A stretch of 28,614 bases of DNA from a virus (IMGVR_UViG_3300042568_000774), one strand, 5' to 3'. Counted from the first letter of the stretch, positions 7,521 through 27,790 are shown. Translations and numbers: made by a program. Notes: a model not told the origin generated them from the letters alone.

Positions 7521-9104
7521 TTAATTAGACATAGCTTTTTCACGAATCTCATCGTGAGCATTTTCTAATTTTTCAGTTATGCCATTTAACAATGGACATA
7601 ATATTTTTGTGATATCACTTTCAAGTTTGTTTAAAAAGTCATTTCCATTAACATAATCAAATAGATTGTTTCTTACCATATCATATAATCCACCATCTAA
7701 ATCATTGTCTTTTTCTAATTTTCCAACACTTCCATCAATGATTGATTTTGAAATAGATTTTGTTAAATAACTACAATCTAATAATTTCTCAATATCATTT
7801 ATTTTAATATCGTCAATTGAACTTATGATAGATTTACTCATCCATCCATCAGGATGTAATGGGGTTAATTTAGATACTAACCATTCACCCATATATTCTT
7901 TGAACGTGTCGAATATAGAATCGTGGTCTTCTTTATCAAAGAACCCTTTTAACGTATCAAAAAATTGTTCTTGGATAATGTGTTTACTAAACCCTTGAGA
8001 ATTTAAATAAATTGATTCTGTCAAGATATCATTAAATAATCTTTTTTGCTGTGGTTTTGTGTTTATAATAGGTGATTCAACTATGATTGACGCTCTATTT
8101 TTAATGATTTTTGATTCCGCCGAATATGTTCTTAATTTTTCATTTTTAACTTTATTTAAATTTTCTTTAATAACATTTTTAATAGTTAAATCAGTTGATT
8201 CATTAAGACCTATAATATATGGACTAGGCGCTTTAAGATATTTAGTTTTACCCGCTAAAATTCTAAACACTTGTCTTTTATTAATTTTCTTATTTAAAAA
8301 TCCGTAAGGTGACAATTTACTTTTTACTGATGCCGTTTCTCCTTCTGTAAAACCTTGGAAACTATCAAATTGACCTGAACCATCACATTTAACTAATTGT
8401 TGTCTAAACTCTCTTAATTGTGGAATTGGTGTTGTTTCAACTTGAGCGTTATATTGTAACGCCGCTCCAAGATATTGACCTAAAATTGTTCTACAACCTT
8501 CAGCATCTAATTTAATTCCTCCGACAACACCCGCTTGTAAATCTTTAGTTTTACCTTTTGGTAAATATATCATTACATTTTTCCATCCTTTATCTCTGTC
8601 TAATGCAGGGACTTGTGAAAATTGAGTTGTTAAAATATCATTATCAGGTAATGAATTCTCATCAGTTATAACTAGTTTTGTCACATCAGGATAAGTAGAT
8701 GTTAATAAATCATTCCATTGTTTAAAAATATTTGACACGGCACCTTTATCAACATAAGATTGTAAGTTAGCCGTTACATTTTTTAGTGTTTTCGTCAATG
8801 TTTCTTTATCTAATTTTGAGTCAATACCAAATGTTGATAATAATGGATTATTAGTGATTGCCTCACACACCCAATATCTTTTTTCTTTAGTTTTCATGTT
8901 TTGTGCCGTCATGTCAGCATAAAACACAATATCTTCACCTTTACTATTTTTTCCATAATAAATGCTCTTACCGGCAATTTTACCAAATTGACCATTACTT
9001 AACCATTGTGGAAAACATCCGGCTTGTAATGCTTTATACAACTTATCTCTATCATTGTTGGTAGGTTGTGTTGCTTGTTCTTTTAAAATTCTATTAAGTT
9101 TCAT
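7521..9104 (-). CDS. Hypothetical, probable virion-associated protein (527 aa)
   Basis: MKLNRILKEQ leader; several internal [IL]xE sites (LNES, IKEN, LTES, IQEQ); last gene of the minus-strand block. Confidence 0.75.
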   Translation of the reverse strand: MKLNRILKEQATQPTNNDRDKLYKALQAGCFPQWLSNGQFGKIAGKSIYYGKNSKGEDIVFYADMTAQNMKTKEKRYWVCEAITNNPLLSTFGIDSKLDKETLTKTLKNVTANLQSYVDKGAVSNIFKQWNDLLTSTYPDVTKLVITDENSLPDNDILTTQFSQVPALDRDKGWKNVMIYLPKGKTKDLQAGVVGGIKLDAEGCRTILGQYLGAALQYNAQVETTPIPQLREFRQQLVKCDGSGQFDSFQGFTEGETASVKSKLSPYGFLNKKINKRQVFRILAGKTKYLKAPSPYIIGLNESTDLTIKNVIKENLNKVKNEKLRTYSAESKIIKNRASIIVESPIINTKPQQKRLFNDILTESIYLNSQGFSKHIIQEQFFDTLKGFFDKEDHDSIFDTFKEYMGEWLVSKLTPLHPDGWMSKSIISSIDDIKINDIEKLLDCSYLTKSISKSIIDGSVGKLEKDNDLDGGLYDMVRNNLFDYVNGNDFLNKLESDITKILCPLLNGITEKLENAHDEIREKAMSN

Positions 9105-9122
9105 TTTAACTGTGTTTTTATA

Positions 9123-9734
9123 TTATTTCCAATCGTCTACAGACCCCGGATTAACTGCCGGAGTTGTATCAGGTGTTATTGTAGTTTCAGGTTTATCTTC
9201 CGGAGTTATAGTTTCATCATCTTTAGTTTTTGGAGTTATTGATTTATTCTCACCATCAGTCGGTGTTGGAGGTTGTTTAGCAAATTTAGTTCTAATTGCA
9301 TCTCCAATAGCGTCTAAAGTTAATTTTCCTATTTTACCATCAGCACCATCTTTATTAGGCCCTGATGAACCTAGTTTGGCCTTATATTTTGTTATTAATA
9401 AATTTTGTAATTTCTTAACAGTATCTTCATAACTTAAAGAAACTTCAGGTGTTGCCGTAGCAGCTGTTGCCGGAGCCGCTGTTGCCGGAGCCGCTGTTGC
9501 CGGAGCCGATGTTGCCGGAGCCGCTGTTGTCGGAGCCGCTGTTGCCTGTGTTGCTAAATCCGATGGTAAGGTTACACCCATTTTTTTACCATATTTATTT
9601 ATCAAATCGCCGGCCTCTTCTTGTTCAAAAATAACTTTAGTATTTTCTTCAAGTGTTTTCTTATTATCATAATTCATCATAAGAAGAATTCTCTTCAAAG
9701 ATTCATTACCCTCATTTAAACTATATTTTTCCAT
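9123..9734 (-). CDS. Leader + ATAAP-repeat linker + peptidoglycan-binding (PG_binding_1-like) protein
   Basis: VKKLQNLL...G...DGKIGKLTLDAI motif; Ala/Thr/Pro repeats. Confidence 0.7.
   Translation of the reverse strand: MEKYSLNEGNESLKRILLMMNYDNKKTLEENTKVIFEQEEAGDLINKYGKKMGVTLPSDLATQATAAPTTAAPATSAPATAAPATAAPATAATATPEVSLSYEDTVKKLQNLLITKYKAKLGSSGPNKDGADGKIGKLTLDAIGDAIRTKFAKQPPTPTDGENKSITPKTKDDETITPEDKPETTITPDTTPAVNPGSVDDWK
9451..9546. repeat. 15-bp tandem repeat GTTGCCGGAGCCGCT (5 copies plus degenerate flanks) encoding (T)AAPAT
   Basis: Units start at 9466, 9481, 9496, 9511 and 9526; degenerate unit at 9451 and partial unit at 9541. Confidence 0.95.
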
Positions 9735-9735
9735 C

Positions 9736-10509
9736 TTATTGTCTTATTGTTTGTTGTGACGCAATTTGTTTTAATTGTTCTTCGGCATTAGGGGTTTGAA
9801 TTCCTGCTAGTTTTAATTGATTTACCGATTGTACTTTTGGTTGTTCCTCATCACTTAATAATTTTATTAATTTTTCTAACGATTGAATATCAAAAGAACC
9901 TGTTTCAGGTAATCCCGCACTTTGTTGAATTTCTTTACTTTGACTCTGTAATTGTTCAACACTTGCATTTGCACTACCCGGTTTTAACTTTTCTAATTTG
10001 GCAATTGATGTTGTATAATTACATTTAGTTAAATTAAATATTTTTTTATTCTTAACGTTTTGAGCAAACCATTCCTCGCCAACTTTACCATAAATATAGT
10101 TTTTATCACCAGGGTTTTTAATATTTAATGTAAGACCTGCTGGTGGAGTTTTTAATGGTAAACACTTTTCGTTAGTTTTTACGTTAGTTTTACTTGAAGA
10201 CTCTCTTTTTTCAGGAGTATCATCAAAAATACTTATAACATTTCCTTCTTCATCTACAAGATTATAATGTTCCTTTTTTAATTTCTTAACAATTGCTGGG
10301 CTAGCAAACTTTAACCATTCACCACTAAATTTCCCATCTTCATCCATTCTTTTAAAAACCAACAAATTATCACTTAACCCAATTTGATAAATGGGTTGTT
10401 TTTTAGTATCAGGGTCAACTTCACCCTTAATTTGTTTGATTGGGTATTTATCGGTATTAGTTGGTGTATAGTCCTCTAAAATTAATCTTCTCATATTTAT
10501 ATTTTTCAT
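9736..10509 (-). CDS. Hypothetical virion-associated protein with partial PG-binding-like C-terminal motif
   Basis: RRLILED leader; IQQSAGLPETGSFD resembles the FQ..GL..TG..D half of PG_binding_1. Confidence 0.65.
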   Translation of the reverse strand: MKNINMRRLILEDYTPTNTDKYPIKQIKGEVDPDTKKQPIYQIGLSDNLLVFKRMDEDGKFSGEWLKFASPAIVKKLKKEHYNLVDEEGNVISIFDDTPEKRESSSKTNVKTNEKCLPLKTPPAGLTLNIKNPGDKNYIYGKVGEEWFAQNVKNKKIFNLTKCNYTTSIAKLEKLKPGSANASVEQLQSQSKEIQQSAGLPETGSFDIQSLEKLIKLLSDEEQPKVQSVNQLKLAGIQTPNAEEQLKQIASQQTIRQ

Positions 10510-10511
10510 TA

Positions 10512-11816
10512 CTAAAATTCGTCTTTATCAACTTGTTTATAAATAATTTCATCATCAGGTGAAATTTCATAATCTTTTTTAATTATTTCTTGGTCTTTCT
10601 TAATTACCTTACTATAATCCCATCCTTTACCTGAAATAAAACGAGCCTTATCATCAGTATCAATAATTATTACATTGTTTTCACATTTCCAAGTACCATT
10701 CATAATTTCTCCACTTTCATGTTCATAACTAAATTTTGAATTTTTATAAAAGTTTAAAATATCTAAACCGTTTGATGACTTAAATGAAACTTTACTATCC
10801 GAATTTTTTGGTAAAGCCTCACCAAACCCACGAATACAAGGGTAATCTTTAACCCAAGAAGGTTCGTTAACAGATGATTGATTTTTATTACAATTTTTTA
10901 ATTCATTAGGGTATTCTTTATTTAATATATCAACAGACCTTTTATATTTTAGATTATCATTAATATTAAACTCTTTACAAGTACTAACATTCTTGGTATA
11001 CCATTTACATTCTATAACCTTAAATACGTATTTTTTACTACCTGTTGGGTCTTTTAACCAACCATTAGTATTACAAGAAGAATTTGAATTTCCATTGTTT
11101 TCCTCTTTTCTCCAATCATTCCACCATTTTTTGGCGTCCTCACCAATGTCGTGAAACCATTCACCGGCTTTATTAATTAATGATGGAACACCAATTTTAA
11201 TGTCTTCCCAAAAACTAGTATCGTCTTTGTCTTTTAATTTTTTCTGTAATTCACTATCGGTTACTTTTTTTAACCATTTTTTATTTTTTCCACGATAAAC
11301 TTCACCATCCTCAGTTGTTATTACAACATCATTATCATCACAAACATAATCACCACTAATACGTTTACCACTTTTAAAAATATAAAGAAAGTCTCCATTT
11401 TTAGAGAAATACCATTTATCACCTTTATCATTGATATAAACAACTTTGTTTGGGTCTGTAGTACCACTTAAACTTTTAACTCCATTTTTTACACAATCCG
11501 GAGTCCAAGAAGGTAATTCAGTTGTTGGTTGGGGGTCGTTACCCGTTGTACTATTACTACTACAATATGATAAATTTTTAGCCCAACCTAAATCACACGC
11601 GTATGTTTGATAAAATGATTTAATTGTCCAATCTGATGAAATAATATTATTTGTTTTAGCTCTTTTAAACGTTTCATTAGTTTGAGATTCATCTTGAAAT
11701 CGTATTTTAACCCAAGTCTTTAAATTAGGATAAGCGTTGTTAAACACGTCTAACTTTCCTAAAGACTTAGCCTTTGCTTTCATTTTTATATATAATTGTT
11801 CTCTATCTAAAGCCAT
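10512..11816 (-). CDS. Hypothetical protein with a duplicated Cys/Trp domain
   Basis: Two PSW...C...G[DT][YW].C...[VI][VI]I.T.D...W modules; ends in TAG. Confidence 0.75.
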   Translation of the reverse strand: MALDREQLYIKMKAKAKSLGKLDVFNNAYPNLKTWVKIRFQDESQTNETFKRAKTNNIISSDWTIKSFYQTYACDLGWAKNLSYCSSNSTTGNDPQPTTELPSWTPDCVKNGVKSLSGTTDPNKVVYINDKGDKWYFSKNGDFLYIFKSGKRISGDYVCDDNDVVITTEDGEVYRGKNKKWLKKVTDSELQKKLKDKDDTSFWEDIKIGVPSLINKAGEWFHDIGEDAKKWWNDWRKEENNGNSNSSCNTNGWLKDPTGSKKYVFKVIECKWYTKNVSTCKEFNINDNLKYKRSVDILNKEYPNELKNCNKNQSSVNEPSWVKDYPCIRGFGEALPKNSDSKVSFKSSNGLDILNFYKNSKFSYEHESGEIMNGTWKCENNVIIIDTDDKARFISGKGWDYSKVIKKDQEIIKKDYEISPDDEIIYKQVDKDEF

Positions 11817-11818
11817 AA

Positions 11819-13495
11819 TTAAAATCCTGATTCGTCAGCTGTTTTTATTTTTTCCGGAGTTATAATTGTATCATTATCGACCGGAGCCGGTATTGGTAAA
11901 TTTTCAAGAGAATCCACTTTTCTTTTGAAATCCTCGTCTAATTTATTTTTTAAAGAATCTAACTTTTGTTTAGAATCATCTATAATTGGTTTAACTTTTT
12001 TAATTACTTCTTCACCATCTTCTTTATCTAGTTTTGTTTCAGGATTTGCTAACCATAATATCATATCTTTAATTCCAACAATAACATTATCCGCAAATCC
12101 AGGTATAAGACTTTCCCAAGTATTGAATTGTTCGTAAGCGTATTGTAAATAAACTTTTAAAACGGTTTCTAACTCTACTTTAGCATCTTTGTATTTTTTC
12201 TTATATTCGTTAATTTGTTCATCTGTCTCTAAACCAAGTGCCTTATAATAATTTTTATTATAATTTTTTGATAAAGTTTGTACCCACCCCAAATCTTCAA
12301 AAAAATACCAATCTTCAACAATTTTAGCAAAAACATCAACAGCCAATTCTAAACCAGCAATTATTAAGTTTATTCTAACATATACCGTTGCGTATTCTGC
12401 AATATATTTTTTTGCCGCGGCACTTTTTCCCGCTTTTTTAATATATTCACCCCAAGCTGATGGGACTAATGTCGACCCATACCAAAAATCAGCCTTTAAT
12501 TCACCAAACTTAGTAGAATGGTCACCCTTTAAATCCATATTTTTAAGCCTTACTAAATCACCCCACATTTCTGATTTACTACCGTATTTCTTTTCAACCC
12601 TTTTTTTATTTGCGTAAGTGATGTCTTTCATTTGTGACCAAAATTTACTTATTCTATCATTAAAAGTCCCATACTCTTTCTGAAATTCCTTTTCAAAGGC
12701 ACCGGTTGCTAATTTTTTGGCTCTACCATATCCATTTAAATTTTCTTTATCTAATCTTTTTTTAACGCTAGGAGGTACATTTTTTGATATCCAATCATTT
12801 ATTTTATCAAAATTATCCCTTCTCATTTTTGTTAATTTTTCAAAATTTAATGAAATTTGTTTTTTATAATTTGCAATATTTGTAGAACCAGTATCAATAC
12901 TAAGTTGTTTAATTAATTCCAAAGTTTCATTTAATAATGTTTCTTCAGATTTAAACATACTTTTAACTGAATCAAAAAAACTATAAAAAGGTTTTGCCCA
13001 ATTTTTACCATGAACCTTTTCCAACCATTTAACCTGATTAGATGTAATTCCTCCTAATTCTGTAAATGTTTTATCTAATGCTTTTTTAGTTTTAGCCCAT
13101 TTAGTACCAGCTCTTCTCATTTTATTAAGAACTGCGTTCATATAACCTTCTGTTTGTGCATCAATTGGATTATTTCTTCTTGTTTTTGCGGCTTTTATTG
13201 CTCGTTCAAGTTCCGCAATTGTTTTAACACCGTTTGGTGTTTTTATAAAATTTGAAAATTTTAATTTAATTGCATTGTCCGATGCGTCATCAATTTCCCC
13301 CTTGATAAATCGTCTAATTAACGCTCTTTCTTCTGTAGTTACTGCTTTTAACGAACCCCTAACGAGTGCGTTAAATATTGTAGCAATAGTTTCATTTGTT
13401 GGACCTTCTAAAAGTATATTAACTTCTTCAGTAATTACAGGTAAACCCATATTACTTCTTATTTGATTAATTTCTAATATTAATTTATTTTCCAT
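11819..13495 (-). CDS. Large basic helical protein, possible ejection protein
   Basis: 558 aa; LILE...ITEE...LLEG leader; one hydrophobic segment (VYVRINLIIAGLELAVDVFAKIV). Confidence 0.7.
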   Translation of the reverse strand: MENKLILEINQIRSNMGLPVITEEVNILLEGPTNETIATIFNALVRGSLKAVTTEERALIRRFIKGEIDDASDNAIKLKFSNFIKTPNGVKTIAELERAIKAAKTRRNNPIDAQTEGYMNAVLNKMRRAGTKWAKTKKALDKTFTELGGITSNQVKWLEKVHGKNWAKPFYSFFDSVKSMFKSEETLLNETLELIKQLSIDTGSTNIANYKKQISLNFEKLTKMRRDNFDKINDWISKNVPPSVKKRLDKENLNGYGRAKKLATGAFEKEFQKEYGTFNDRISKFWSQMKDITYANKKRVEKKYGSKSEMWGDLVRLKNMDLKGDHSTKFGELKADFWYGSTLVPSAWGEYIKKAGKSAAAKKYIAEYATVYVRINLIIAGLELAVDVFAKIVEDWYFFEDLGWVQTLSKNYNKNYYKALGLETDEQINEYKKKYKDAKVELETVLKVYLQYAYEQFNTWESLIPGFADNVIVGIKDMILWLANPETKLDKEDGEEVIKKVKPIIDDSKQKLDSLKNKLDEDFKRKVDSLENLPIPAPVDNDTIITPEKIKTADESGF

Positions 13496-13501
13496 TTTTA
13501 T

Positions 13502-14683
13502 TTATTTTATCATTTTAACTTCCAAACCTTTAGTTAAGTCCACAGGGGAATACTTAACACCATCAATTATATAATACTGAGGATACATTTTGTTATTTTT
13601 TTTAACCATAATAATTTTAAACGTTTTTGGTTTAAAAGCAGACTTAAACAATTTAGGGTTTTCATCTAATATGGTGTTAAGTAAATCTTTATCTGTAAAA
13701 TTTTCCAAATCACTTGATACTAATGCTGAATCTTTTTCTGGATTACTTTCAAAAAATTTAGCAATAGCATCACTTTTTGATTCAAACCATTTCACTAATT
13801 TATATGTTCCAGCACCTGAGACTCCCGCTAATGATAGTCTTAGTGGGTTTACAACAGTTTTAACCGCTTTACTTGGGGTTTTCCACAACTCAATTGCTTT
13901 GGTTATTTCAGAATATTTTTTATCAACCCAACTTCCTAATTCTTTAGGTAATCCATCAGTTTTTGGTTTAAATTTTTCAAGAAAAGATACAAATTTTTTC
14001 ATAAAATTAGGGCCGAATTTTTCTATCAATAATTTAAACATTTTACTAGCGGATTTAAGAGTGGCTTTACCTAATTTAAAAATTCCTTGCCCCAATAAAA
14101 TAGCTCCAATGTCTACAATAAGATTTTGAAACCCAATATTTGTTGTAAAATGAAACTTAAACCATTCCCATAATTGTTTACTATATAATCCAGTAATCGA
14201 AGGATTTGGAATCATTGTGACCGGGTACTCAGGCATTTTAGGCCCATTATTATCCCAATCTCTCACCATCATATAAGCGTCATTAATAATAATTGCACCA
14301 TCTAAAATCATAAACAATATTGGTGCACCGATTTCGGCACCCGCAATAGATAACACAACTTGTAATGTTGCTCCTTCAGGTGTGAAAAAAAATTCACGTA
14401 CTTCTAACAACCATTCTGAAAATGTTTTAGAATCTATTTTTTTAGTCATTTTTGGAAACGTGGCTGTTGATATTTTTTTACCATCCGGACCTCTAAATGA
14501 AACCGCTGTTTTATCTACATATTTACGAGTATTATTTTCAAACTCATCATTTTTAAGTTTTTTAATATCTTGGTCTGTAAATTTTTTCTGTTCCGATAAT
14601 GTTTTTGTCGAATCATAACGCATCATAAGAAGTACTCTATTTAAAGCATCATTCCCTTCGGTTATAGTATAAGTTGAATTCAT
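13502..14683 (-). CDS. Membrane-segment protein, possible ejection protein (start revised to MNSTYT)
   Basis: ATG 14683 is 5 nt after ATATTTAT; the track start overlaps the upstream gene; hydrophobic LQVVLSIAGAEIGAPILFMILDGAIII segment. Confidence 0.75.
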   Translation of the reverse strand: MNSTYTITEGNDALNRVLLMMRYDSTKTLSEQKKFTDQDIKKLKNDEFENNTRKYVDKTAVSFRGPDGKKISTATFPKMTKKIDSKTFSEWLLEVREFFFTPEGATLQVVLSIAGAEIGAPILFMILDGAIIINDAYMMVRDWDNNGPKMPEYPVTMIPNPSITGLYSKQLWEWFKFHFTTNIGFQNLIVDIGAILLGQGIFKLGKATLKSASKMFKLLIEKFGPNFMKKFVSFLEKFKPKTDGLPKELGSWVDKKYSEITKAIELWKTPSKAVKTVVNPLRLSLAGVSGAGTYKLVKWFESKSDAIAKFFESNPEKDSALVSSDLENFTDKDLLNTILDENPKLFKSAFKPKTFKIIMVKKNNKMYPQYYIIDGVKYSPVDLTKGLEVKMIK

Positions 14684-14714
14684 AGTTAATAAATATCGGT
14701 GAATTATTTTTTTT

Positions 14715-14972
14715 TTAAGGTACCGGATTTGCGTGACCTCTTGTAAGACCTGTCTCCCATTTTTCACCGGCTAAACCTAATTTATTGGCTTTACCTCTTG
14801 TTAATCCGGTTTCCCACTTTCTACCGGTGTTTGTAGTTGTTCCACCACCACCTCCACCAGCAGCGGGTGCCGCAGCGGCAGGAGATTCTTCTTGTTCACC
14901 AAGTTCTTCATTTGAATCACTCGTTGTATATCTCTTCATTAAACTAATTATGTGGTCAATATCTGTTCTCAT
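14715..14972 (-). CDS. 85-aa protein with two KWETGLTRGxAN repeats
   Basis: Repeat is conserved at protein level with synonymous DNA differences; ATATTTAT 6 nt upstream. Confidence 0.8.
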   Translation of the reverse strand: MRTDIDHIISLMKRYTTSDSNEELGEQEESPAAAAPAAGGGGGGTTTNTGRKWETGLTRGKANKLGLAGEKWETGLTRGHANPVP

Positions 14973-15008
14973 ATGTTGATAAATATTTTTTGTTTTGGAA
15001 AAAAGTTG

Positions 15009-15954: not shown

Positions 15955-16527
15955 TTAATTATATTTTTTTAATCTTTTGAACATATCTAAAGATTCATTA
16001 ATCTTGTTAATTATCTCTTCTTTTTCTTCTTCTTCGATTTCATTTTCCTCATCACCTAAATCCATTAAATCGTCAAGATTCATTTCAAATTCATCATCTT
16101 CACACATTTCAAATTCATCATCGGATACATATTCATCGTCAACATCTACCGTACCATTAGGTAAATCATATTCACCATCACCAATCATATCCAATTGTTC
16201 TTCCACTTCTTCAAAACTTTCTTCCGGTGCGTATTCAGTACCAGCAGAAATATACCCTTCATTATACTCTTCTTCTTCATCAGAGAATAATCCGGTACTT
16301 TTACCATCATGTTTCATCTCATTGATGTTCATGTTCTTATAAGCGGTTACAACACCTTTATTATTAACTGTAAGACCTTCTTTATCGTTAGCGAAGTCTT
16401 GAGTGTATAATGGTTGTTCATTTGACGGTTTAATATAACTTGTTAAGTATCCATCATAAACTTCTTTATGTTGGTCAAGGATGTTATTTTTTTCCTCGTT
16501 TGTCATTTTAAAAAAATATGAGTTCAT
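15955..16527 (-). CDS. Highly acidic hypothetical protein (scaffold-like composition)
   Basis: EEKNNILDQH leader; D/E-rich body; INKINESLDMFKRL tail. Confidence 0.75.
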   Translation of the reverse strand: MNSYFFKMTNEEKNNILDQHKEVYDGYLTSYIKPSNEQPLYTQDFANDKEGLTVNNKGVVTAYKNMNINEMKHDGKSTGLFSDEEEEYNEGYISAGTEYAPEESFEEVEEQLDMIGDGEYDLPNGTVDVDDEYVSDDEFEMCEDDEFEMNLDDLMDLGDEENEIEEEEKEEIINKINESLDMFKRLKKYN

Positions 16528-16542: not shown

Positions 16543-17070
16543 TTAAGCAATACCTGTTGTAGTATCTGTTGATTGATTATTCATTGCAAAAGCCGCTTTT
16601 GGTACCATAATACCACTTGAATTTTTAGTACAAAATTGTGTAGTTAATGTTTGGACCAATTCAGGATTAAAAAATTTATCTGTTTCAGAAAGTTTATCTT
16701 CAATAAAAAACTCAAGGAACGGTTGCCCACATTTAAATGTAACTACACCCATTCTATCTGATAATTCGATTCGAACACCCTTTACACCATTATTACTCAT
16801 TTTTTCAACAGGACCACTAACAACCGGTTGAGATGTTAATGTTGGGTCATCATAGATATTAATTATTGTACCAACTTTAAGTTCTTTAATAGGTTGTGGT
16901 GGTGCTACCCTTTGGTTTTGTGATGGTCTATTTGGTCGTGTTGGAGTAGGTGTTCGACGTGTTCCACCTAATAGTGGATTTTGTTCAGAAATTATATTCT
17001 TTTTAGCTGAGTGCATCTCTAAAATTCTATTTTTCTCATCTTGAGAAATATCATTAAATAAATTTTTCAT
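16543..17070 (-). CDS. Hypothetical virion-associated protein
   Basis: DEKNRILEMH...IISEQ leader; ATATTTAT at 17089-17096. Confidence 0.75.
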   Translation of the reverse strand: MKNLFNDISQDEKNRILEMHSAKKNIISEQNPLLGGTRRTPTPTRPNRPSQNQRVAPPQPIKELKVGTIINIYDDPTLTSQPVVSGPVEKMSNNGVKGVRIELSDRMGVVTFKCGQPFLEFFIEDKLSETDKFFNPELVQTLTTQFCTKNSSGIMVPKAAFAMNNQSTDTTTGIA

Positions 17071-17105
17071 ATTAATTTGTTTTTATATATAAATATGTTT
17101 ATGTA

Positions 17106-17687
17106 TTATAAAAGGGTATATGTTTGAATAATCTTGGTTGATAACCTCTGTAGGTATCTGTTTATACTAGACATATCTTCTTCAATCCCCTTATCATTTA
17201 AATAGTTTATAACCCCGTTAATCATTTCTGCTTGAGCTTGGTCAGAGTGTTCCAACATTTCTTCAAACGCGTCTTCATTAGGAACATCTTTGTATTTAAA
17301 TTCGTGTTTAATTCTATCACTACCCATATATAGGTATGGACCGGCACCATACATATTTGTTATACCGGAAGCTCTAACCATTAATAGGTATTTTTTTAAA
17401 AATTTAATGTTAAAATATTTGAACAAATCAATATTGTCCATAATAAATTTATCTCTATCTTCAGTGATTTTTTTCTTAACTTTAAATCTTTCTTCTTTAT
17501 CCCACATATCTGTGTCAGACAATAACGCTAATTTACTACCATTATCCCATTCAACACCATATTGTACGTCACCGAATACCTTATCAACACTATATACCGT
17601 CCCGTGAGTACCATCAGGTACAGAACTTTCTCCTGACATATGTAATAAAATTATTCTATCACCTTTTTTTAATTCCGGATTAATCAT
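17106..17687 (-). CDS. DUF4314-like N-terminal domain fused to a DUF5049-like domain
   Basis: GDRIILLHM...GTHGTV..VD...VEWDNGSKLAL; VRASGITNMY. Confidence 0.6.
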   Translation of the reverse strand: MINPELKKGDRIILLHMSGESSVPDGTHGTVYSVDKVFGDVQYGVEWDNGSKLALLSDTDMWDKEERFKVKKKITEDRDKFIMDNIDLFKYFNIKFLKKYLLMVRASGITNMYGAGPYLYMGSDRIKHEFKYKDVPNEDAFEEMLEHSDQAQAEMINGVINYLNDKGIEEDMSSINRYLQRLSTKIIQTYTLL

Positions 17688-17737
17688 ATTTAATAAAATT
17701 ATTTAACAATAAATATATTTAAAGTATTTATTATTGT

Positions 17738-18367
17738 ATGAAAACCACATTATTAATAAATGAAAGTCAAAAAAGAATAATTCTTAAAGAATCTATTGTT
17801 GACAATATTAGAAAATCCATTGAGGAAGGATACGAATACACTGCAAAAGTATTGTCTGATGTAAAGAAAGATTATGGACTTAATCTTGAGTTTCTTATAA
17901 CTTGGGGTGCTAGTATTGGAGGATTCATCGCACCTATTGGGGAGTTTATTCAAGGTAGATACCCTGAAATATCTGAGGTTGAATTAAGTTTAATATTAAC
18001 AGGTATTATTTCGATACATTATTTGGACAACAAAAAAGAGATTGAAAAAATATTACAAAAAATTAAAGAGGATGGTTTATCCGACGCATTTAAACTTGGG
18101 TTAAAAAAATCAAACGAATTAAAAGATACTTTGTTTAAATTTTTAGAAAGTTTAAACATCACATTCTTTAAAGTATCAAAAATGATGTCATACGCATTTA
18201 TCGTACCAATTTTACTTATGTTATTCAATATGGTTAAAAGTCATGAAATAAATGTTTCTGACGCAAAAGAAATCGCATTGAGAATTGTTGGTAGCGGTAT
18301 CGTTAGTTTATCAGGAATTGTTGTAAGAGATTTAATAACAAAACTTATTAAAAGATTTAAAGATTAA
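17738..18367 (+). CDS. Hypothetical membrane protein with leader
   Basis: LLINESQKRIILKES leader; several hydrophobic segments; GTATTTAT at 17724-17731. Confidence 0.75.
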   Translation: MKTTLLINESQKRIILKESIVDNIRKSIEEGYEYTAKVLSDVKKDYGLNLEFLITWGASIGGFIAPIGEFIQGRYPEISEVELSLILTGIISIHYLDNKKEIEKILQKIKEDGLSDAFKLGLKKSNELKDTLFKFLESLNITFFKVSKMMSYAFIVPILLMLFNMVKSHEINVSDAKEIALRIVGSGIVSLSGIVVRDLITKLIKRFKD

Positions 18368-19146
18368 TAATCTCCGGAAATAAAATCACATAATTTACTT
18401 GAAAATGTTGAATGATTGGTATAGTTAAAATCTTCAATTTCTGTATCACCGATGTTTCTAATGTTTGCGTAGGTATGGGTCCATATCTCACAATCGGCTA
18501 AATCCATATACTGAGTGATTTCATCCCAAACAATCCCATCTAACGGACTTCTAAGATTATCATCTTCACTTATATAACCAACAATAGTTTCTGCAAGGTC
18601 TTTAGGTATATTCTCTAATGGTTTATTATCAACTAATACTTGATTACAATATACGGAAACATTTGTGGTAATACCATCATCAATATACATGTCGGAAACT
18701 TCAACATTAATATTTAATTTTAATTCTTTTCTTTTCCCTTCACAGAAGAAGTGTGTAGATATTTGTTTTGGAGTATTTTCTTCAATATCTTTTGATACTT
18801 TCTTAATAAATGACTGAGGGATATCTCCACCGTATCTATTTATTTTTTCACCATTATAATAAATGTCCTTAACTTTATTAAAAAAATCTTTCCAATCAAG
18901 ACCAACCATTTCACACCCATCTTGTACTATGTGTGTTGATTTACAATGGAAAAAATCCCACAAATAAGGTATGTCCGATTGTTTTGAGGTAATTTCTAAG
19001 TCATAATGGATTTCAGGGTAAGATTGTTGCCCTTTAATTTTTTTAAAAACATCAACATTAACAAATTTAAATCTAAACGCACCAGAGGTATGAGTTAATC
19101 GGATTAGATATGATATAACACCTTTTATTTGAGTATTATTAGCCAT
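18364..19146 (-). CDS. Hypothetical protein
   Basis: 260-aa ORF coupled to the upstream gene. Confidence 0.75.
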   Translation of the reverse strand: MANNTQIKGVISYLIRLTHTSGAFRFKFVNVDVFKKIKGQQSYPEIHYDLEITSKQSDIPYLWDFFHCKSTHIVQDGCEMVGLDWKDFFNKVKDIYYNGEKINRYGGDIPQSFIKKVSKDIEENTPKQISTHFFCEGKRKELKLNINVEVSDMYIDDGITTNVSVYCNQVLVDNKPLENIPKDLAETIVGYISEDDNLRSPLDGIVWDEITQYMDLADCEIWTHTYANIRNIGDTEIEDFNYTNHSTFSSKLCDFISGDY

Positions 19147-20098
19147 TAATAATTATTTGTATCACTTTATCCACTTCATTGTCATTCATTTGGTGAATTT
19201 CTTTATGGTCTTCAAACCAATCTCTAACCACATCATTAAATGGTAATTTTCTTAATTTTGCGATACGTCTAAAACCGGCTCTTTGAGCTTTTATTTCGCG
19301 TGGTTGAGTATAATATTTAAAAGAATTTTTTGTTGGAGTTTTAGTTTTACGTTCCCCTCTATAATCCTGATATAAGTGTTCTAATTCGTGAGCGACTATT
19401 TCATTCAACTCACCAATTATATTATAAAAATCATTCTTTAATGTTTTAGGGTTGATTATTACTAAAATTTGAATCACATCATTATCTGTGGTTTGTCCAT
19501 TCATTTTATATTTTGGAGCGTCATTATCAATTTTAACAAATAAATCTACATTAAACCCAAAAGGTAAATTAATAAATTGATATTCTGAACCATCTTCAAC
19601 ATCGGGTAATCTAAAATCACCAGCTTTAGTATTTTTTAAAACATTAACAATATCTCTTACAACAGTTCTAATGGCTAATCTACTCATTCTTGATTCATTT
19701 ATTGGTTTTGGAACATCAAATGTTAAACTATCAATTGTTGTTCTAATATCTCCATCAAAGATACGTAAAAAATTAGTCATCGCCAAATTTAATTCTGAAT
19801 AGAATTTATATAATCTATTTTCAAAACTTTTAGCAATCATTTTACCTTGTTCATTGTCTTCAGGTGTAAATAGTAATTGACTAAATCTATCATTTAGTCC
19901 TGTGATAACAACATTTAATAAAGCGTAATCATACTCCTCACCAACGCTAGTCATTTTTTTATAACCATTAATTTTAAATTTATAATCTATATCCGAATTC
20001 ATTGATTCCGGTAAATCATTAATTATTTGACCTTTAAACTTAAATGTTCGGGTTGATAATAGTTTATTAATTCTATTTAGTTGTTTTTCTGTTAACAT
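19139..20098 (-). CDS. HExxH zincin-like protein (start revised to MLTEKQ)
   Basis: AHELEH plus downstream YYTQPREIKA; ATG 20098 is 4 nt after GTATTTAT. Confidence 0.7.
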   Translation of the reverse strand: MLTEKQLNRINKLLSTRTFKFKGQIINDLPESMNSDIDYKFKINGYKKMTSVGEEYDYALLNVVITGLNDRFSQLLFTPEDNEQGKMIAKSFENRLYKFYSELNLAMTNFLRIFDGDIRTTIDSLTFDVPKPINESRMSRLAIRTVVRDIVNVLKNTKAGDFRLPDVEDGSEYQFINLPFGFNVDLFVKIDNDAPKYKMNGQTTDNDVIQILVIINPKTLKNDFYNIIGELNEIVAHELEHLYQDYRGERKTKTPTKNSFKYYTQPREIKAQRAGFRRIAKLRKLPFNDVVRDWFEDHKEIHQMNDNEVDKVIQIIING

Positions 20099-20163
20099 AT
20101 CTATAAATACTTTAATAATCAATTAATGTTTTTTTTGTTTATAATTTTACTTATATTTCAAAT

Positions 20164-20722: not shown

Positions 20723-20758
20723 TTATCCTTATATTTATAGTATAAAAACATTTCTGTT

Positions 20759-21271
20759 ATGAAAAAAATACAAATAAACGAAAACGAACTTCGTAAATCA
20801 GTTAGAAAACATTTGTTGGAACAATCTGAAACCGGAGCAAAAGATAATAGAGAAGAAAAACAAAGATGTGTTGCTGGAAATGTAATGCCACTAGACGAAC
20901 TTGTTGGTCCTTCTGATAACTTTAGTGATTACGCATCAGGTGTTTTAAAACGTGATGGTGGTATTAACGGAATGGTTGATACATTAGATATGTTAAGAAC
21001 ATTACGTTTACATTCAAACATTAAAGATAATGGTGAACATTTATCTTATAATTTAATGAATCACTTAAACAAATTTAGAAATAAAAATTTCCACGACGAA
21101 ACAAATAATGGTTGTATTAAAGCCATGGATAAAGTAATTGAACTTTATAAAGAGAACGAACACGGGGAAGATTTAGTTAAAGACATTGAAAAAGTGTTGG
21201 CGCACAAAGACCCATCTCCAAGAGCGAAAGAATATCTGAAAAGATGTTTGGTATTAGTTAAGGAGAAATAA
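20759..21271 (+). CDS. Hypothetical virion-associated protein
   Basis: MKKIQINENELRKSVRKHLLEQ leader; ATATTTAT at 20731-20738. Confidence 0.8.
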   Translation: MKKIQINENELRKSVRKHLLEQSETGAKDNREEKQRCVAGNVMPLDELVGPSDNFSDYASGVLKRDGGINGMVDTLDMLRTLRLHSNIKDNGEHLSYNLMNHLNKFRNKNFHDETNNGCIKAMDKVIELYKENEHGEDLVKDIEKVLAHKDPSPRAKEYLKRCLVLVKEK

Positions 21272-22110: not shown

Positions 22111-22170
22111 ATCTAATTATTTTATACAAAAGTAATCATTAATATAATACCAACCAAATAAATTATTACT

Positions 22171-22737
22171 TTATTTTAAGTATTCCAACAATTTTTCTTT
22201 AACACCTGATTGTTTGATTCCTTCATTATCTCTTGGTGTATGAACAAAGTTAGATAAACCCCACTTTTGTTCCAAACCATTTGATTCCAAACCTAATGTT
22301 AAATCATCAATACAAACCCAATGTGTAATTTCAGGGTGGTCGGTTAAATATTGTTTAACCTCTAAACATCTTTGTTGTTCATATTTTGCATTTCGATTCC
22401 ATTCGTATTCGTCAGGACTATCACAATCAAAATAACGTTTGGTAACACCGATTGGTTTTTTGACGATTCCTTCTGAAAGGTAATATTCACCAAGTTCTTC
22501 TAAATTGGCATATAATCTCCAATCGGAAGACACAACGATTTCTGCTCCGGTTTCTTCTAATACCTGATTCAATACCTTGATTGCCTTTTTGTCAAAATAA
22601 TCAAAACGATATTTCACCTCAACATCAGGGTCATTCATCACCAAAGATATTTTATCTTTTTTTCGTTTATTAGCACGACTCCCCCAATTATTCGCCAAAC
22701 AGATAACACCATCGTTATCCAAAAATATTACTTTCAT
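22171..22737 (-). CDS. HAD-family phosphatase (HAD_SAK_2 / Swiss Army Knife RNA-repair type)
   Basis: VIFLDNDGV, IVVSSDWR and WVCIDD motifs. Confidence 0.85.
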   Translation of the reverse strand: MKVIFLDNDGVICLANNWGSRANKRKKDKISLVMNDPDVEVKYRFDYFDKKAIKVLNQVLEETGAEIVVSSDWRLYANLEELGEYYLSEGIVKKPIGVTKRYFDCDSPDEYEWNRNAKYEQQRCLEVKQYLTDHPEITHWVCIDDLTLGLESNGLEQKWGLSNFVHTPRDNEGIKQSGVKEKLLEYLK

Positions 22738-22907: not shown

Positions 22908-22908
22908 C

Positions 22909-23305: not shown

Positions 23306-23495
23306 TTAATATTCTTTTTATAACCGGAACAATACATTTGTGAGTATCATTAGGTTCGTCAATAATATATTTGGTGTTAAAATCCTCCTTTGTTAATTCA
23401 ACTAAATTAACCTTATCTTTATTCATTTCAAATCCATATAAGGTTTTGAACTTATCACCATTGTTTTCTATTTGAACTGAAAATCTATTTTCCAT
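23298..23495 (-). CDS. Hypothetical protein
   Basis: 65-aa ORF, coupled at both ends. Confidence 0.65.
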   Translation of the reverse strand: MENRFSVQIENNGDKFKTLYGFEMNKDKVNLVELTKEDFNTKYIIDEPNDTHKCIVPVIKRILNG

Positions 23496-23697
23496 CTTTT
23501 ATTTTTTTTATACCTCCCCACTTTAACATATTGTTTATTCTATTTTCTAAAGTAATAAAATCTCCTATCTCCAAACAGTAGTTGAGTTGTTTTAGTTGAA
23601 ATTCTCTGCTACTATTAACACTTGTTTCGTCCCAATACTCTGTGTCTAATTCGTATTTTTGATTTCTGTATATAATGGTGTATTGATTATCTTCCAT
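23485..23697 (-). CDS. Hypothetical protein (start revised to MEDNQ)
   Basis: ATG 23697 overlaps the stop of the 23687..23824 small ORF. Confidence 0.65.
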   Translation of the reverse strand: MEDNQYTIIYRNQKYELDTEYWDETSVNSSREFQLKQLNYCLEIGDFITLENRINNMLKWGGIKKIKDGK

Positions 23698-23824
23698 CTT
23701 TTTTCTTTGGTATTTCGTAATTTTCCTCCAACCATTCAAATAATTCGTGGGGTAAAATACACGGGTAAAAATCTATAAAATCAAATAAGATTTCTTCCCA
23801 ATCGTTTTCATTATTTTCCGGCAT
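23687..23824 (-). CDS. 45-aa small ORF (MPENNENDWEEILFDF...)
   Basis: Translated by hand; TAATG-coupled to the upstream gene. Confidence 0.6.
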   Translation of the reverse strand: MPENNENDWEEILFDFIDFYPCILPHELFEWLEENYEIPKKKDGR

Positions 23825-24570
23825 TATTCTTTGTTTAATTGTTCAATAATATATTGAATACCTTTTTCAGTTAATTTATAACCATCCGGAAATTCTCCGT
23901 GACCATTATCCGTCATTCGTAAATGGAGGGGGTTAATTAAACTTAAACCTTGTAGAACTTTATGTTGAAGGATTACTCTTTTAACTCCTTCTCTTTTCTC
24001 ATCATTAAAGACATCTTCAAATTTGATTTCTCGGGATTCATCATATAACCCCAATTCTTCATCAGATTTCATCATATCAATTAGATGTTGTTTTTGTTCT
24101 TCTTTTGTTGTGATTATTTTGTATTTCCAAACACATTTAGAATGATTCTGACCTAAATCATTTGGGTCAACTTGTCTTCCCATAGGGTTAAAGAGTCCAT
24201 AAACAACCTCAACTTTAATACAAGTTGGATTCTCCACAAACCATTGAAGGAAATCCTCACCAATCGGATGAACACCATCTTTAATCAATTCCGGGTCAGT
24301 CGTCATAAGGATTTTCTTCCAATCTCTTCTATCAACCAAACCTTGAGCATTAACCAACTTTGGGGTTGCTTTAATCACCTCAATTCCATCGGTAATATAT
24401 TCGTCTCTAACAAATTTACTATCAGTAGTAATATACATATACTCATTGGAACACTTGGTACATTCGTTACTATTGGGTGTTGATATATTATCAAACCTCA
24501 ATTTATTGGAATCCAAGTCCCTCCACAATCTACTCTCATTTGGAGTGGGTATTAAAAATATATTTTTCAT
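23824..24570 (-). CDS. Hypothetical phage protein
   Basis: 248-aa ORF beginning MKNIFLIPT..SRLW. Confidence 0.8.
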   Translation of the reverse strand: MKNIFLIPTPNESRLWRDLDSNKLRFDNISTPNSNECTKCSNEYMYITTDSKFVRDEYITDGIEVIKATPKLVNAQGLVDRRDWKKILMTTDPELIKDGVHPIGEDFLQWFVENPTCIKVEVVYGLFNPMGRQVDPNDLGQNHSKCVWKYKIITTKEEQKQHLIDMMKSDEELGLYDESREIKFEDVFNDEKREGVKRVILQHKVLQGLSLINPLHLRMTDNGHGEFPDGYKLTEKGIQYIIEQLNKE

Positions 24571-24574
24571 AATC

Positions 24575-24748
24575 TTATTTTTTTGATTCTTCCAAATAAA
24601 TCATATATTCATCTTCAGAGTATTTCCCGGAAAGTTTTCCCGCCTCATAACCAATCTGAAAATTATTATACAAATGTTCACATCCAATACGCTCCACAAT
24701 CATCTGCGTGGATTTGTTTTTTACAACGATAAATTTTGATTTTGCCAT
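24575..24748 (-). CDS. 57-aa small ORF (MAKSKFIVVKNKST...)
   Basis: Translated by hand; TATCTTTG box at 24765-24772; first gene of the operon. Confidence 0.6.
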   Translation of the reverse strand: MAKSKFIVVKNKSTQMIVERIGCEHLYNNFQIGYEAGKLSGKYSEDEYMIYLEESKK

Positions 24749-24775
24749 ATAAATTTATTTTAGACAAAGATAAAC

Positions 24776-24806
24776 AAAAAATCCCAATAAAAAAATTATT
24801 GGGATT
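24776..24806 (-). terminator. Intrinsic terminator after dnaK
   Basis: AATCCCAATAA/TTATTGGGATT 11-bp stem with a minus-strand T-tract. Confidence 0.7.
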
Positions 24807-24828
24807 AAAAAAACATTATTGTAAAATG

Positions 24829-26685
24829 TTATTCAGATTTAACTTCTTCAAATTCAACATCTGAAGCATTTATATCTGTTTCACTTTCATTTACACTATT
24901 GTATAAATCCTGAGTGATGGTTTGGAACTTTTGGGTTAGTTCTTCCATAAGTGTTTTACAACTTTCAACATCTTTATTAGAATGTGATTCTTTCAATTTA
25001 TCAAGAATAGTTGTTATTTCTGTTTTTTGTTCTTCAGAAATCTTATCCTCTAAATCAGTTAAAGATTTACTTGTTTGGAAAATTAAATTGTCCGCCGAGT
25101 TTAATGTGTCAACATCTTCTCTAACTTTTTTGTCCGCCTCAGCATTTTCTTCAGCTTCAGCCTTCATTTTCTCAATCTCTTCTTTAGATAAACCTGAAGA
25201 AGCCTCAATTCTAATTGATTGTGTTTTGTTTGTGGCTTTATCAACCGCAGAAACATTAATAATACCATTCGCATCAATATCAAAGACCACTTCAATTTGT
25301 GGAACTCCTCTCATTGCTGGTGGTAATCCATCTAAATGGAATCTACCAATTGTTCTGTTGTCTTTCGCCATTGGTCTCTCTCCTTGTAAGACGTGGATTT
25401 CAACTGAAGGTTGGTTATCAACAGCTGTTGAGAATACCTGTGATTTTTTGGTTGGGATTGTTGTGTTTGCTTCAATTAAACGAGTCAATACACCACCCAT
25501 TGTTTCAATACCCAAAGATAATGGTGTTACGTCTAATAACAACACGTCTTTTACATCACCAGCTAATACTCCCCCTTGAATAGCGGCCCCTAAAGCAACT
25601 ACCTCATCCGGATTCACACCTTTTGATGGTTCTTTACCGAAGAACTCTTTTACCGCGTTTTGAATAGCAGGTATTCTTGTTGTACCACCAACTAAAATAA
25701 CCTCGTCAATATCACCAACTTTCAATTTAGCATTTTTCAACGCTGATTTACAAGGTGCGATAGTTCGTTTGATTAAGTCGTCAGCAAGTTGTTCAAACTT
25801 AGCTCTTGTTAAAGTTTTAACCAAGTGTTTTGGTCCGGTTGCGTCAGCAGTTAAATAAGGTAAGTTAATCTCGGTTTGAGATGATGAAGATAATTCAACC
25901 TTCGCTTTCTCAGCACCTTCTCTTAACCTTTGTAACGCCATCGCATCTTGAGAAATATCAATTCCATTCTCGTTTTTGAACTCCTCAACTAAATAATCAA
26001 TGATTACTCGGTCAAAGTCGTCCCCTCCTAAGTGTGTGTCACCATCGGTAGATAATACCTCAAATACACCACCACCTAAATCCAATACGGATACGTCGTG
26101 AGTTCCCCCACCGCAGTCAAATACTACGATTTTACTATCCCCTTTTTTGTCAAGACCATATGCAAGAGCCGCCGCGGTTGGTTCGTTGATAATACGACGA
26201 ACATTTAATCCGGCAATTTCACCCGCCTCTTTTGTAGCCTGACGTTGGGCATCGTTAAAGTAAGCCGGTACGGTAATAACCGCATCAGTTACTGATTCAC
26301 CTAAATAATCTTCAGCAGTTTGTTTCATCTTTTGTAAGATGATAGCCGATAATTCTTGTGGTGAATATTTTCTATCGTCAATTTCAACTCTTGGTTGAGA
26401 ACCTTCTTTTACAACAGAGTAAGGCACTTTCCCAATTTCAGTTTTACTTTCGTCATAGGTTGACCCCATAAAACGTTTGATAGAAGAAATGGTTTTAGTC
26501 GGATTGGTTACCGCTTGTCTTTTTGCTGGGTCACCAACTTTTCTTTCTGATTCGTTGATGAATCCAATGATTGAAGGTGTTGTTCTTTTTCCTTCTGAAT
26601 TTGCTATTACAACAGGTTCGTTACCCTCCATTACGGATACACACGAGTTAGTTGTTCCTAAGTCAATTCCAATAATTTTTCCCAT
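24829..26685 (-). CDS. dnaK: Hsp70 chaperone DnaK
   Basis: [61 protein letters not shown] and [14 protein letters not shown] motifs; 618 aa. Confidence 0.98.
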
Positions 26686-26761
26686 AGTTTTAATAAGTTT
26701 TGTTTAAGTATATAATTTTATTTTCAATGTGTCAAGCACAACCCAAATATTATCAAAATTA

Positions 26762-26814
26762 TGCCAAAATAAAAAACCTGACATAATTACACGATAAACT
26801 GACAAATTGTCAGG
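26762..26814. promoter_or_regulatory. TG(A/C)CA repeats with inverted repeat CTGACA-AAT-TGTCAG
   Basis: TGCCA at 26762, CCTGACA at 26777, CTGACA at 26799 and TGTCAGG at 26808, in the dnaK divergent intergenic region. Confidence 0.5.
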
Positions 26815-26845
26815 TAAATAAAGTTGTGGTAGTCAAATAAAGTGT

Positions 26846-26853
26846 TATCTTTG
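26846..26853 (+). promoter_or_regulatory. TAnnTTTG box (TATCTTTG)
   Basis: 4 nt upstream of ATG 26858. Confidence 0.65.
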
Positions 26854-26857
26854 CCGT

Positions 26858-27235
26858 ATGAAATTATTTTTAGACGATAACAGACAACCTTACGATGTAT
26901 TTAAGAACACTATTGACCCAATTTATGAAAATAATAATGAATGGTCAATAGTAAAAAACTATGAAGAATTTGTGAACATCATATTAGAGTCAGGATTACC
27001 CGAAGTAATCTCATTTGACCACGATTTATCTCAAAACCATTATTTACCGGAAAATCAATCTAATATCGATTATAATACCATAAAAGATAAAACCGGTTAT
27101 GATGCGGCGTTATGGTTGGTTGGGTATTGTAGAATGAATAATGTTGAATTACCTACGATTAAGGTTCACTCGGCTAATCCTGAAGGTAAGAAGAATATTG
27201 AAAGAGTGTTACATCTCACTAACGAAAGCTCGTAA
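26858..27235 (+). CDS. Cyclic-phosphate processing receiver-domain protein (cREC-like)
   Basis: LFLDD.R, ISFDHDL, KTGYD and VHSANPEG motifs. Confidence 0.8.
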   Translation: MKLFLDDNRQPYDVFKNTIDPIYENNNEWSIVKNYEEFVNIILESGLPEVISFDHDLSQNHYLPENQSNIDYNTIKDKTGYDAALWLVGYCRMNNVELPTIKVHSANPEGKKNIERVLHLTNESS

Positions 27236-27790
27236 TTTAACCTTATCCCAATTTTTAAGGTCCTCACCATTATCACCAAGTTTCAATGTGGACATTACTC
27301 TATGCCATCCCTCAACCATTTCGTATTTACCATCTTTATGTTTGATTACGATTATTGGTTCGTTCTTACCCGTTGGGGTGGCTAGTTTTCTTTGAACATC
27401 CATTCTCTCTTTATCATTTTTCACCATATAAGCGTCGATATCACCAAAATTTCTTTCAATAAATGCGTTTATGGTATTTTCAGTAAAATCTTCAGGATTA
27501 ACCTCAATAATTCTTAATTTCCAATCACCATTTAAATAATCATAAATCATCTTACCCAAAAAAGGAATTGGGTCTCCGTGATATTGTGACATAATTGTTT
27601 TAAAACTTTCATCGTCACCACATAAAACATTAGTTGTGAATTCTTTTAAAATATATTCAGGTGCGTTTGGAAATTCTTTCTTAAGTCGATTATAAAATGA
27701 TTTACACACCGAAGACGTTGGTTTGAATAACGGAATTGATTGGATATCCTCCAATAATTTATATTGTCTTTCTGTTATTATAATTCTCAT
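27209..27790 (-). CDS. ParB/Sulfiredoxin-like domain protein with leader
   Basis: EPIIVIKHKDGKYEMVEGWHR resembles the ParB-N PI.V...DG.HR motif; MRIIITERQYKLLED leader. Confidence 0.65.
   Translation of the reverse strand: MRIIITERQYKLLEDIQSIPLFKPTSSVCKSFYNRLKKEFPNAPEYILKEFTTNVLCGDDESFKTIMSQYHGDPIPFLGKMIYDYLNGDWKLRIIEVNPEDFTENTINAFIERNFGDIDAYMVKNDKERMDVQRKLATPTGKNEPIIVIKHKDGKYEMVEGWHRVMSTLKLGDNGEDLKNWDKVKLRAFVSEM

Follow-up and report, generated by a model that had tools for sequence, protein, structure and literature searches.

Families of modular N-terminal leaders ending in hydrophobic-x-Glu in a T4-like uncultured phage are candidate capsid-targeting propeptides

The window analyzed here is a stretch of viral DNA of 28,614 nucleotides (IMGVR_UViG_3300042568_000774), in which a series of unrelated proteins begin with short leaders that end in Leu or Ile, any residue and Glu (L/I-x-E). 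For at least five proteins of the window these leaders are real tags: they stand at the N-terminus, behave as modules, are under selection at the protein level and have L/I-x-E as their boundary. On balance, we favor the reading that the tags are capsid-targeting propeptides, which would be cut by a gp21-type protease and would load accessory proteins into the phage head. Capsid targeting and cleavage fit every indirect test that was run (protease, sites in the major capsid protein (MCP), upstream sequence box and hypervariable locus), and this evidence is circumstantial.

The window belongs to an uncultured, T4-like, AT-rich phage of about 300 kb and of Flavobacterium/Bacteroidota type. Its G+C content is about 30%, and orphan genes are densely packed in it. 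Its relative G001 is an IMG/VR contig of 318,164 bp (100% complete by CheckV), with 76% identity in the 9104 protein (proteins are named here by their start coordinates), and positions 2310-26685 of the window are syntenic with 88366-114550 of G001. The head module lies outside the window, and the evidence on the protease comes from G001 and other leader-bearing contigs. In G001 the head module is of T4 type, with a Portal_T4 portal, a Peptidase_S77 protease, an acidic putative scaffold and a Gp23-family MCP. By capsid, the closest cultured relatives are Flavobacterium phage vB_FspM_immuto (immuto below) and a Microcystis phage. The identical 14683 protein is indexed in 126 metagenome-collection blocks and was present in 17 of the 17 contigs read. 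Lake samples that contain this phage include JGI 3300042567, 3300042929 and 3300042465.

Results

Leader families at protein N-termini

The N-termini quoted in the original prediction are all present at their start coordinates. Leaders of the window are 9-37 residues long, and 11 of the 12 have an [I/L]-x-E end. The loose [I/L]-x-E motif itself, which had been proposed as the marker of a leader, performs no better than chance in the window or in G001. Stricter forms are enriched at the N-termini of G001, with an odds ratio (OR) of 3.2 (p 2e-10) for [ILVM]-x-E-[QN] and of 5.5 for hh-x-E-[QN] (h, hydrophobic). Control motifs with D or K instead of E at the P1 position were flat, showing no N-terminal enrichment in G001.

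When 30-residue segments from 294 G001 proteins were compared all against all, the pairs scoring at least 40 comprised 105 N-terminal, 12 interior and 30 C-terminal pairs, and the bodies behind the leaders were unrelated in 89 of the 105 N-terminal pairs. The leaders fall into the following classes, whose common feature is the end, a hydrophobic-x-Glu followed by Gln or Asn.

Class A: MKIIITE-Q-Y..L
Class B: ..LTESEL..IVKRVMSEQ
Classes C, D and G: E..L.R..LLM.YD..KTLSE-N/Q and ..NMKYLLGY...VISEQ
Class E: ..EEKNRI..H
Class F: MK.LIRRILRE

Profiles of the classes, made without any window sequence, were used to scan the translations of all six reading frames of the window (24,609 residues). They matched 14683 and 9734 (class D), 27790 (class A) and, marginally, 17070 and 16527 (class E), and nothing else. 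At 9104, 10509, 13495, 17738, 20098 and 20759 the class profiles gave E>1, and the profiles of class F (MKxLIRKILKE) and of the MKEQIR type had no match at 9104 or 10509. About twelve shared leaders had been predicted; the five matched proteins are demonstrable family members, two of them marginally, and the other seven went undetected by the profiles.

Two sub-families had been singled out among these leaders. That of 9734 and 14683 is confirmed, with 15 identities in a 23-residue core, and a profile made from leaders of other organisms finds both (E 3e-14 and 1e-15, respectively). The pair 16527 and 17070 does have EKN.IL..H in common, but its profile support is marginal (E ~0.01). The leaders and candidate leaders of the window are as follows.

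14591..14683, minus strand: class D leader of 31 residues, ending K-T-L-S-E/Q (cut-type site after E), on the 393-residue protein 13502-14683; profile E 1e-15
9624..9734, minus strand: class D leader on the 203-residue protein 9123-9734; profile E 3e-14
27749..27790, minus strand: class A leader of 14 residues, MRIIITE..LLE/D, on the putative ParB/Srx-like protein 27209-27790; profile (from G001) E 2e-6
16984..17070, minus strand: class E leader of 29 residues, ..EKNRILEMH..I-I-S-E/Q, on the protein 16543-17070; three-seed profile E 0.011; RTATTTAT box at 17089-17096
16456..16527, minus strand: class E-like N-terminus, ..EEKNNILDQH.., on the acidic protein 15955-16527; three-seed profile E 0.012; 97% conserved in G001
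9078..9104, minus strand: short leader, MKLNRILKE/Q, on the 527-residue protein 7521-9104; undetected by the class profiles
10474..10509, minus strand: short candidate leader of 12 residues, ..RRLILE/D, on the protein 9736-10509; by motif only, in the leader operon, profiles E>1
13427..13495, minus strand: candidate leader, ..EINQIRSNMGL..V-I-T-E/E, on the 558-residue protein 11819-13495; resembles classes C and G by eye, not significant by profile
14895..14972, minus strand: candidate leader, ..IDHIISLMKRY..L-G-E/Q, on the 85-residue protein 14715-14972; RTATTTAT box at 14979-14986; conserved in G001
17738..17791, plus strand: candidate leader, ..LINESQKRIILKE/S, on the membrane-type protein 17738-18367 with two hydrophobic segments; by motif only, profiles E>1; box at 17724-17731
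20057..20098, minus strand: candidate leader, MLTE/KQLNRINKLL, on the HExxH protein 19139-20098; by motif only; box at 20103-20110, 4 nt from the ATG
20759..20821, plus strand: class B-like candidate leader of 21 residues, ..ELRKSVRKHLLE/Q, on the protein 20759-21271; resembles class B of G001, four-seed profile E 2; box at 20731-20738

The 14972 leader is a further member, absent from the original prediction. The 13495 leader can be aligned within the class D/G alignment (A1). For 14683 and 20098 the ATG starts were preferred over longer GTG or TTG frames, because an RTATTTAT box stands 4-5 nt upstream of each ATG and homologues begin there.

Individual leaders are well conserved. The 14683 leader has 48 leader homologues, some of them on unrelated bodies, and its E31 is invariant in 110 sequences. 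The 9734 leader carries two successive sites, T-L-E-E/N and I-F-E/Q, followed by a Thr/Ala/Pro linker, and the only match of the 9734 protein in G001 is the leader of an unrelated 558-residue protein. All of 100 full-length homologues of the 9104 protein, some with as little as 31% identity, have [IL]-x-E-[QED] among their first 24 residues, as IKEQ in 80 and LKEQ in 15 of them.

Leaders and bodies are exchanged independently

The view of the leaders as modular tags is well supported: they are strictly N-terminal, are exchanged between classes on one body, are kept while bodies are swapped and have an invariant L/I-x-E as their boundary. Among homologues of the 27790 protein, one conserved body is found with at least three different leaders, namely class A, class F (in a short or a long form) and the type MKEQIR..YL.E. 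All of these leaders are joined at the same point, just before the body start S-I-P-I-Y-K, and every class ends in L-x-E. In the AlphaFold2 model of 27790, residues 1-24 have a predicted local distance difference test score (pLDDT) below 50 and the body scores about 90, the leader forming an unpacked extension. The reverse exchange is seen in 17070, whose leader is 97% identical to that of its G001 orthologue through I-I-S-E-Q and whose body after this point is only 13-23% identical. The passengers had been described as unrelated, and the bodies of the twelve proteins indeed have no BLAST similarity to each other at E<0.01.

Same-codon use at the conserved leader positions was 0.64, compared with 0.54 expected from the genome. 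Synonymous codons in the leaders thus differ almost as much as across the whole genome, and therefore selection acts on the peptide.

Breadth and conservation of the class D leader

When the class D/G profile (A1) was searched against 1.84 billion representatives, 619 protein clusters were found at E<=1e-3. Among the best 150 of these 619 clusters, about 145 have the match at the actual start of the protein, and the proteins range in length from 34 to 767 residues. The site Glu is invariant among 110 aligned class D and G leaders. P3 is L or I and P1' is N or Q in 146 of 146, a result that is partly forced by the anchor pattern used. A second h-x-E-Q is found within 14 residues in half of the class D/G leaders. 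Depletion of [LI]-x-E-[NQ] inside the cargo bodies was weak (20 observed versus 26.8 expected, z -1.2). Pfam holds no family for the class D leader.

In three class G-tagged proteins (P0086, P0110 and P0116) the whole leader is repeated internally, at residues ~210-285 (..NEELN.MKY.LGYQRG.VISEQ), between two domains. These internal copies suggest polyprotein-like processing. The protein encoded at 204321-205685 of G001 has both an N-terminal leader and a leader-like C-terminal helix (residues 434-452, profile E 9e-4). In this it recalls T4 Alt, a protein from which both ends are trimmed.

A leader operon in a hypervariable locus

Several of the leader-bearing genes belong to one six-gene operon, with the 14683 gene as the first.

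7521..14696, minus strand: six-gene operon from 14683 to 7521, with gene gaps of 2-18 nt and one RTATTTAT box at 14689-14696

When window 9123-14683 was compared with G001 95206-100862, the flanking genes were 76-90% identical, while four or five inner genes were unrelated apart from their leaders; the 10509 protein has no homologue in G001. Each replacement gene in the equivalent operon of G001 likewise begins with a leader that has h-x-E-[QN] at its end. This context supports the weak leaders of the operon, which stand behind the same box as strong ones and opposite tagged G001 counterparts. The internal-protein loci of T4 are likewise hypervariable between relatives.

Protease, capsid protein sites and the RTATTTAT box

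A Peptidase_S77 (gp21-type) protease is encoded by G001 (84 bits), by 15 of the 16 leader-bearing contigs of at least 100 kb and by 5 of the 5 of those that are at least 90% complete. The mature N-terminus of T4 gp23 aligns near residue 45 of the G001 MCP, just past L-R-E/N, and the sites L-Y-E-N-Q and I-N-E/A in the MCP propeptide region are common to G001 and phage immuto. In G001 a class E-tagged gene directly follows the capsid gene.

The predicted co-occurrence of RTATTTAT with leader genes holds, with the box at 20 of 50 leader genes versus 61 of 362 others (p 4e-4). The box heads seven leader-gene units in the window, weak leaders alongside strong ones, and in G001 it precedes the scaffold, protease, tail-sheath-like and baseplate genes. 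Spacing between box and ATG, genome-wide in G001 and in the window (4026-4039, 14689-14696, 20103-20110 and others), prefers 4-6 nt or 13-21 nt. Short spacing is mostly found at tagged small genes and long spacing mostly at structural genes. A box 4-6 nt from the ATG implies leaderless mRNAs.

By eye, the tails of the G001 scaffold (41145-42695, ..FLRMKDLMSKLK) and of the S77 protease (43090-43815, ..SLDLMKKLNDYLG) resemble the leader helices, and the C-terminal ..SLDLMKKLNDYLG of the protease is conserved in 11 relatives. Mimicry of the scaffold by the leaders was considered and is unsupported, as the class C/D/G profile matches neither the scaffold tail nor the protease tail at E<=5.

Phage immuto has related shared N-termini, MKKQILSEQF..AGIITESQ (twice) and MENFDLKKFLVENKL..KILKEN (three times). 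Small genes beside its S77 protease (16659-17741, gp071, and neighbors) start with helices ending h-x-E. One of them contains ..HFIAE/A, which matches the end of the T4 capsid-targeting sequence (CTS).

Identity of the tagged proteins

Almost nothing was matched by Pfam and PHROGs over the cargo proteins. The 27790 protein has no Pfam match, and its putative assignment as ParB/Srx-like is backed by fold-search matches that are consistent but weak: the top Foldseek matches are all sulfiredoxin, ParB-N, Noc or PadC (E 0.01-0.3), and a ParB-like PHROG is matched at E 4e-5. The residues E-G-W-H-R are invariant in 33 homologues of this protein. Two other proposed functions did not find support in Pfam. 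A peptidoglycan-binding domain, which had been assigned to 9734, is undetected in 9734 itself, and the description of 20098 as a zincin has HExxH and weak Atlas leads (M78, SprT) as its basis. Annotated cargos with class D tags are few (PG_binding_1, DUF6861, annexin and glycine zipper), PG_binding_1 being found on 5 of 110.

Discussion

Proposed function of the leaders

In the mechanism that we propose, the tags would be exchangeable propeptides of several classes, each made of a short amphipathic helix, then hydrophobic-x-Glu, then Gln, Asn or Asp. The tagged proteins would be made late, alongside the head proteins, and the tag would dock its cargo to the scaffold core of the assembling prohead. 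The gp21-type (Peptidase_S77) prohead protease of the phage would then cut after the Glu, and the freed cargo would stay in the head and enter the host with the DNA. We infer each of these events, from the late timing and the docking to the cleavage and the delivery.

Several observations weigh against capsid targeting. The loose [I/L]-x-E motif often arises by chance, occurring in 18 of 41 N-termini of the window versus 28% of interior 25-residue windows, and its N-terminal enrichment in G001 (OR 1.67) is equalled by an [IL]-x-K control. Of the twelve leaders listed at first, seven cannot be told apart statistically from background and rest on their context, and the 16527 N-terminus has no clear L/I-x-E end. 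When the class D and G leaders were searched by tblastn against 50,697 GenBank phage records, the outcome was no match plus one match at chance level. Several cargos carry hydrophobic segments, which is unusual for soluble internal proteins. The co-occurrence of leaders and protease is confounded by descent, because all leader-bearing contigs look like one phage clade, and the late status of the RTATTTAT box derives only from the genes downstream of it. About 40-50 genes per genome are tagged, far above the handful of T4. Finally, the leaders share no sequence similarity with the T4 CTS beyond the M-K start and the h-x-E end, a comparison made by eye, ten residues being too few for a homology test.

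Alternative explanations

The alternative that survives best, although we consider it unlikely, is that the tags are real and carry another address, such as the DnaK chaperone, tail or baseplate assembly, a membrane or export route or regulated degradation, with the Glu as part of a binding motif. A full DnaK is encoded in both the window and G001, the leaders have hydrophobic cores flanked by basic residues, and the hydrophobic segments of some cargos would suit such a destination. The leader-like helices found internally in P0086, P0110 and P0116 and C-terminally in the 204321-205685 protein of G001 point the same way, since they mean that a free N-terminus is not required. However, another address leaves unexplained the L/I-x-E end with a small polar residue in every class, the frequent second site and the disordered linker after the site, and the leaders have no signal-peptide-like hydrophobic stretch.

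Somewhat less probable again is over-counting, in which only two or three clear sub-families would be true and the rest would arise by chance from a proteome rich in Ile, Leu, Lys and Glu with Lys/Ile-rich N-termini. The E>1 profile results at six of the listed leaders and the [IL]-x-K control speak for this explanation, and [IL]-x-E is found in 28-31% of any 25-35-residue window. It does not account for I/L-K-E-Q being kept in 9104 homologues down to 31% identity, for every gene of the equivalent G001 operon beginning with h-x-E-[QN], or for the weak leaders sharing their box with the strong ones. Chance over-counting is real for the motif as first defined, but it is unlikely as an explanation of the operon-wide pattern.

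Two further explanations are very improbable. The shared segment could be a nucleotide-level feature, either a signal in the 5' coding region that serves the translation of leaderless mRNAs or patches of homology that promote cassette recombination, with no role for the peptide. Consistently with this, the box lies 4-6 nt from many ATGs, A-ending codons are somewhat favored in codons 3-6, and bodies are exchanged right after the leaders. The conserved Leu, Thr, Ile, Gln and Tyr positions nevertheless use several synonymous codons at near genome-wide frequencies, residue type is conserved over 20-36 residues in the 619 clusters, and profiles match only in frame at N-termini. Equally remote is a recognition tag like the leaders of ribosomally synthesized and post-translationally modified peptides (RiPPs), read by one modifying enzyme, such as a radical-SAM maturase, that acts on many substrates; one short peptide on many unrelated proteins is the RiPP-leader pattern, but the leaders here form multiple unrelated classes rather than one, and the idea is disfavored because a Radical_SAM domain was found in 0 of 5 complete leader-bearing genomes, compared with 14 of 14 reference genomes in a control search.

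Comparison with known targeting systems

Capsid targeting as proposed here has its closest model in T4, where gp21 cuts after L/I-x-E and a ten-residue CTS suffices for loading into the prohead core (PMC9026906); T-even internal proteins are diverse and only their CTS is conserved (PMC3012670). The T4 CTS of IPI, IPII and IPIII, which gp21 removes as it does the propeptides of Alt, gp24, gp67 and gp68, resembles the present leaders in being a short N-terminal peptide with an L/I-x-E end. Unrelated and fast-evolving cargo, hypervariable loci and a gp21-family (Peptidase_S77) protease in the phage clade are also common to the two (PMC9026906, PMC3012670). Besides the number of tagged genes, they differ in that T4 has one 10-residue tag and the present phages several leader classes of 7 to ~36 residues, that P1' is N, Q or D here and mostly a small residue in T4, and that tandem and internal copies occur here.

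Encapsulins, which are shells of the HK97 fold, load diverse cargo through a short terminal peptide that suffices for loading; in contrast to the present leaders, these peptides are mostly C-terminal and uncleaved. Propeptide sites of the phiKZ type are reported to have small residues ahead of the Glu (S/A/G-x-E). The propeptides concerned are long and do not form a shared swappable tag, and by their MCP, portal and protease the phages studied here are of T4 type. The likeness is that phiKZ, 201phi2-1 and SPN3US have tens of head proteins with N-terminal propeptides removed after Glu, at several redundant sites, by the gp21-related proteases gp175 and gp245 (PMC9026906, PMC7411985). The Dar proteins of phage P1 likewise have N-terminal packaging signals, which differ in being protein-specific and used with adaptor proteins instead of forming a shared tag family with a protease-site end. 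Capsid targeting is also discussed in a paper on the head proteome of P1 (PMC9024508).

Capsid targeting as such is an established idea in T4, and the novelty lies in the scale, in the multiplicity of tag classes and in the lineage. A literature search, including full-text searches for leader strings, found no description of such leaders, and no virion proteome paper was found for Flavobacterium phage immuto.

If the tags work as in T4, they would provide a sequence-based listing of the proteins injected by a large, uncultured and environmentally common phage group, and handles for packaging foreign proteins into Bacteroidota phage capsids. Injected proteins meet the host defenses first, and therefore the hypervariable tagged genes would be prime candidates for new anti-defense and takeover functions. 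A more far-reaching version, which we put forward only tentatively, is that the head is loaded by a multi-class address code with some 40-50 proteins, roughly one gene in eight, as an injected arsenal on the scale of a secretion system. The cargo of such an arsenal might, with the same reserve, include membrane-active proteins, ParB/Srx-like enzymes and HExxH proteins, and its copy number, its location or its processing into several pieces might be set by the different leader classes, the tandem sites and the internal copies.

Other genes of the window

By Pfam and PHROGs, the domain content of the window includes a full DnaK, a 4HBT thioesterase, a HAD_SAK_2 protein and a cREC_REC protein.

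24829-26685, minus strand: full-length DnaK (Hsp70), 860 bits, 93% identical to the G001 copy; its nearest database relatives are in uncultured phages of 480-735 kb

The HAD_SAK_2 protein (22171-22737, minus strand) and the cREC_REC receiver-like protein (26858-27235, plus strand) are a few kb apart. Both domains are named for the RNA-repair 'Swiss Army Knife' systems, of which no other parts are in view. A DUF4314 protein (17106-17687, minus strand) lies amid the tagged genes and has its own RTATTTAT box, without a leader.

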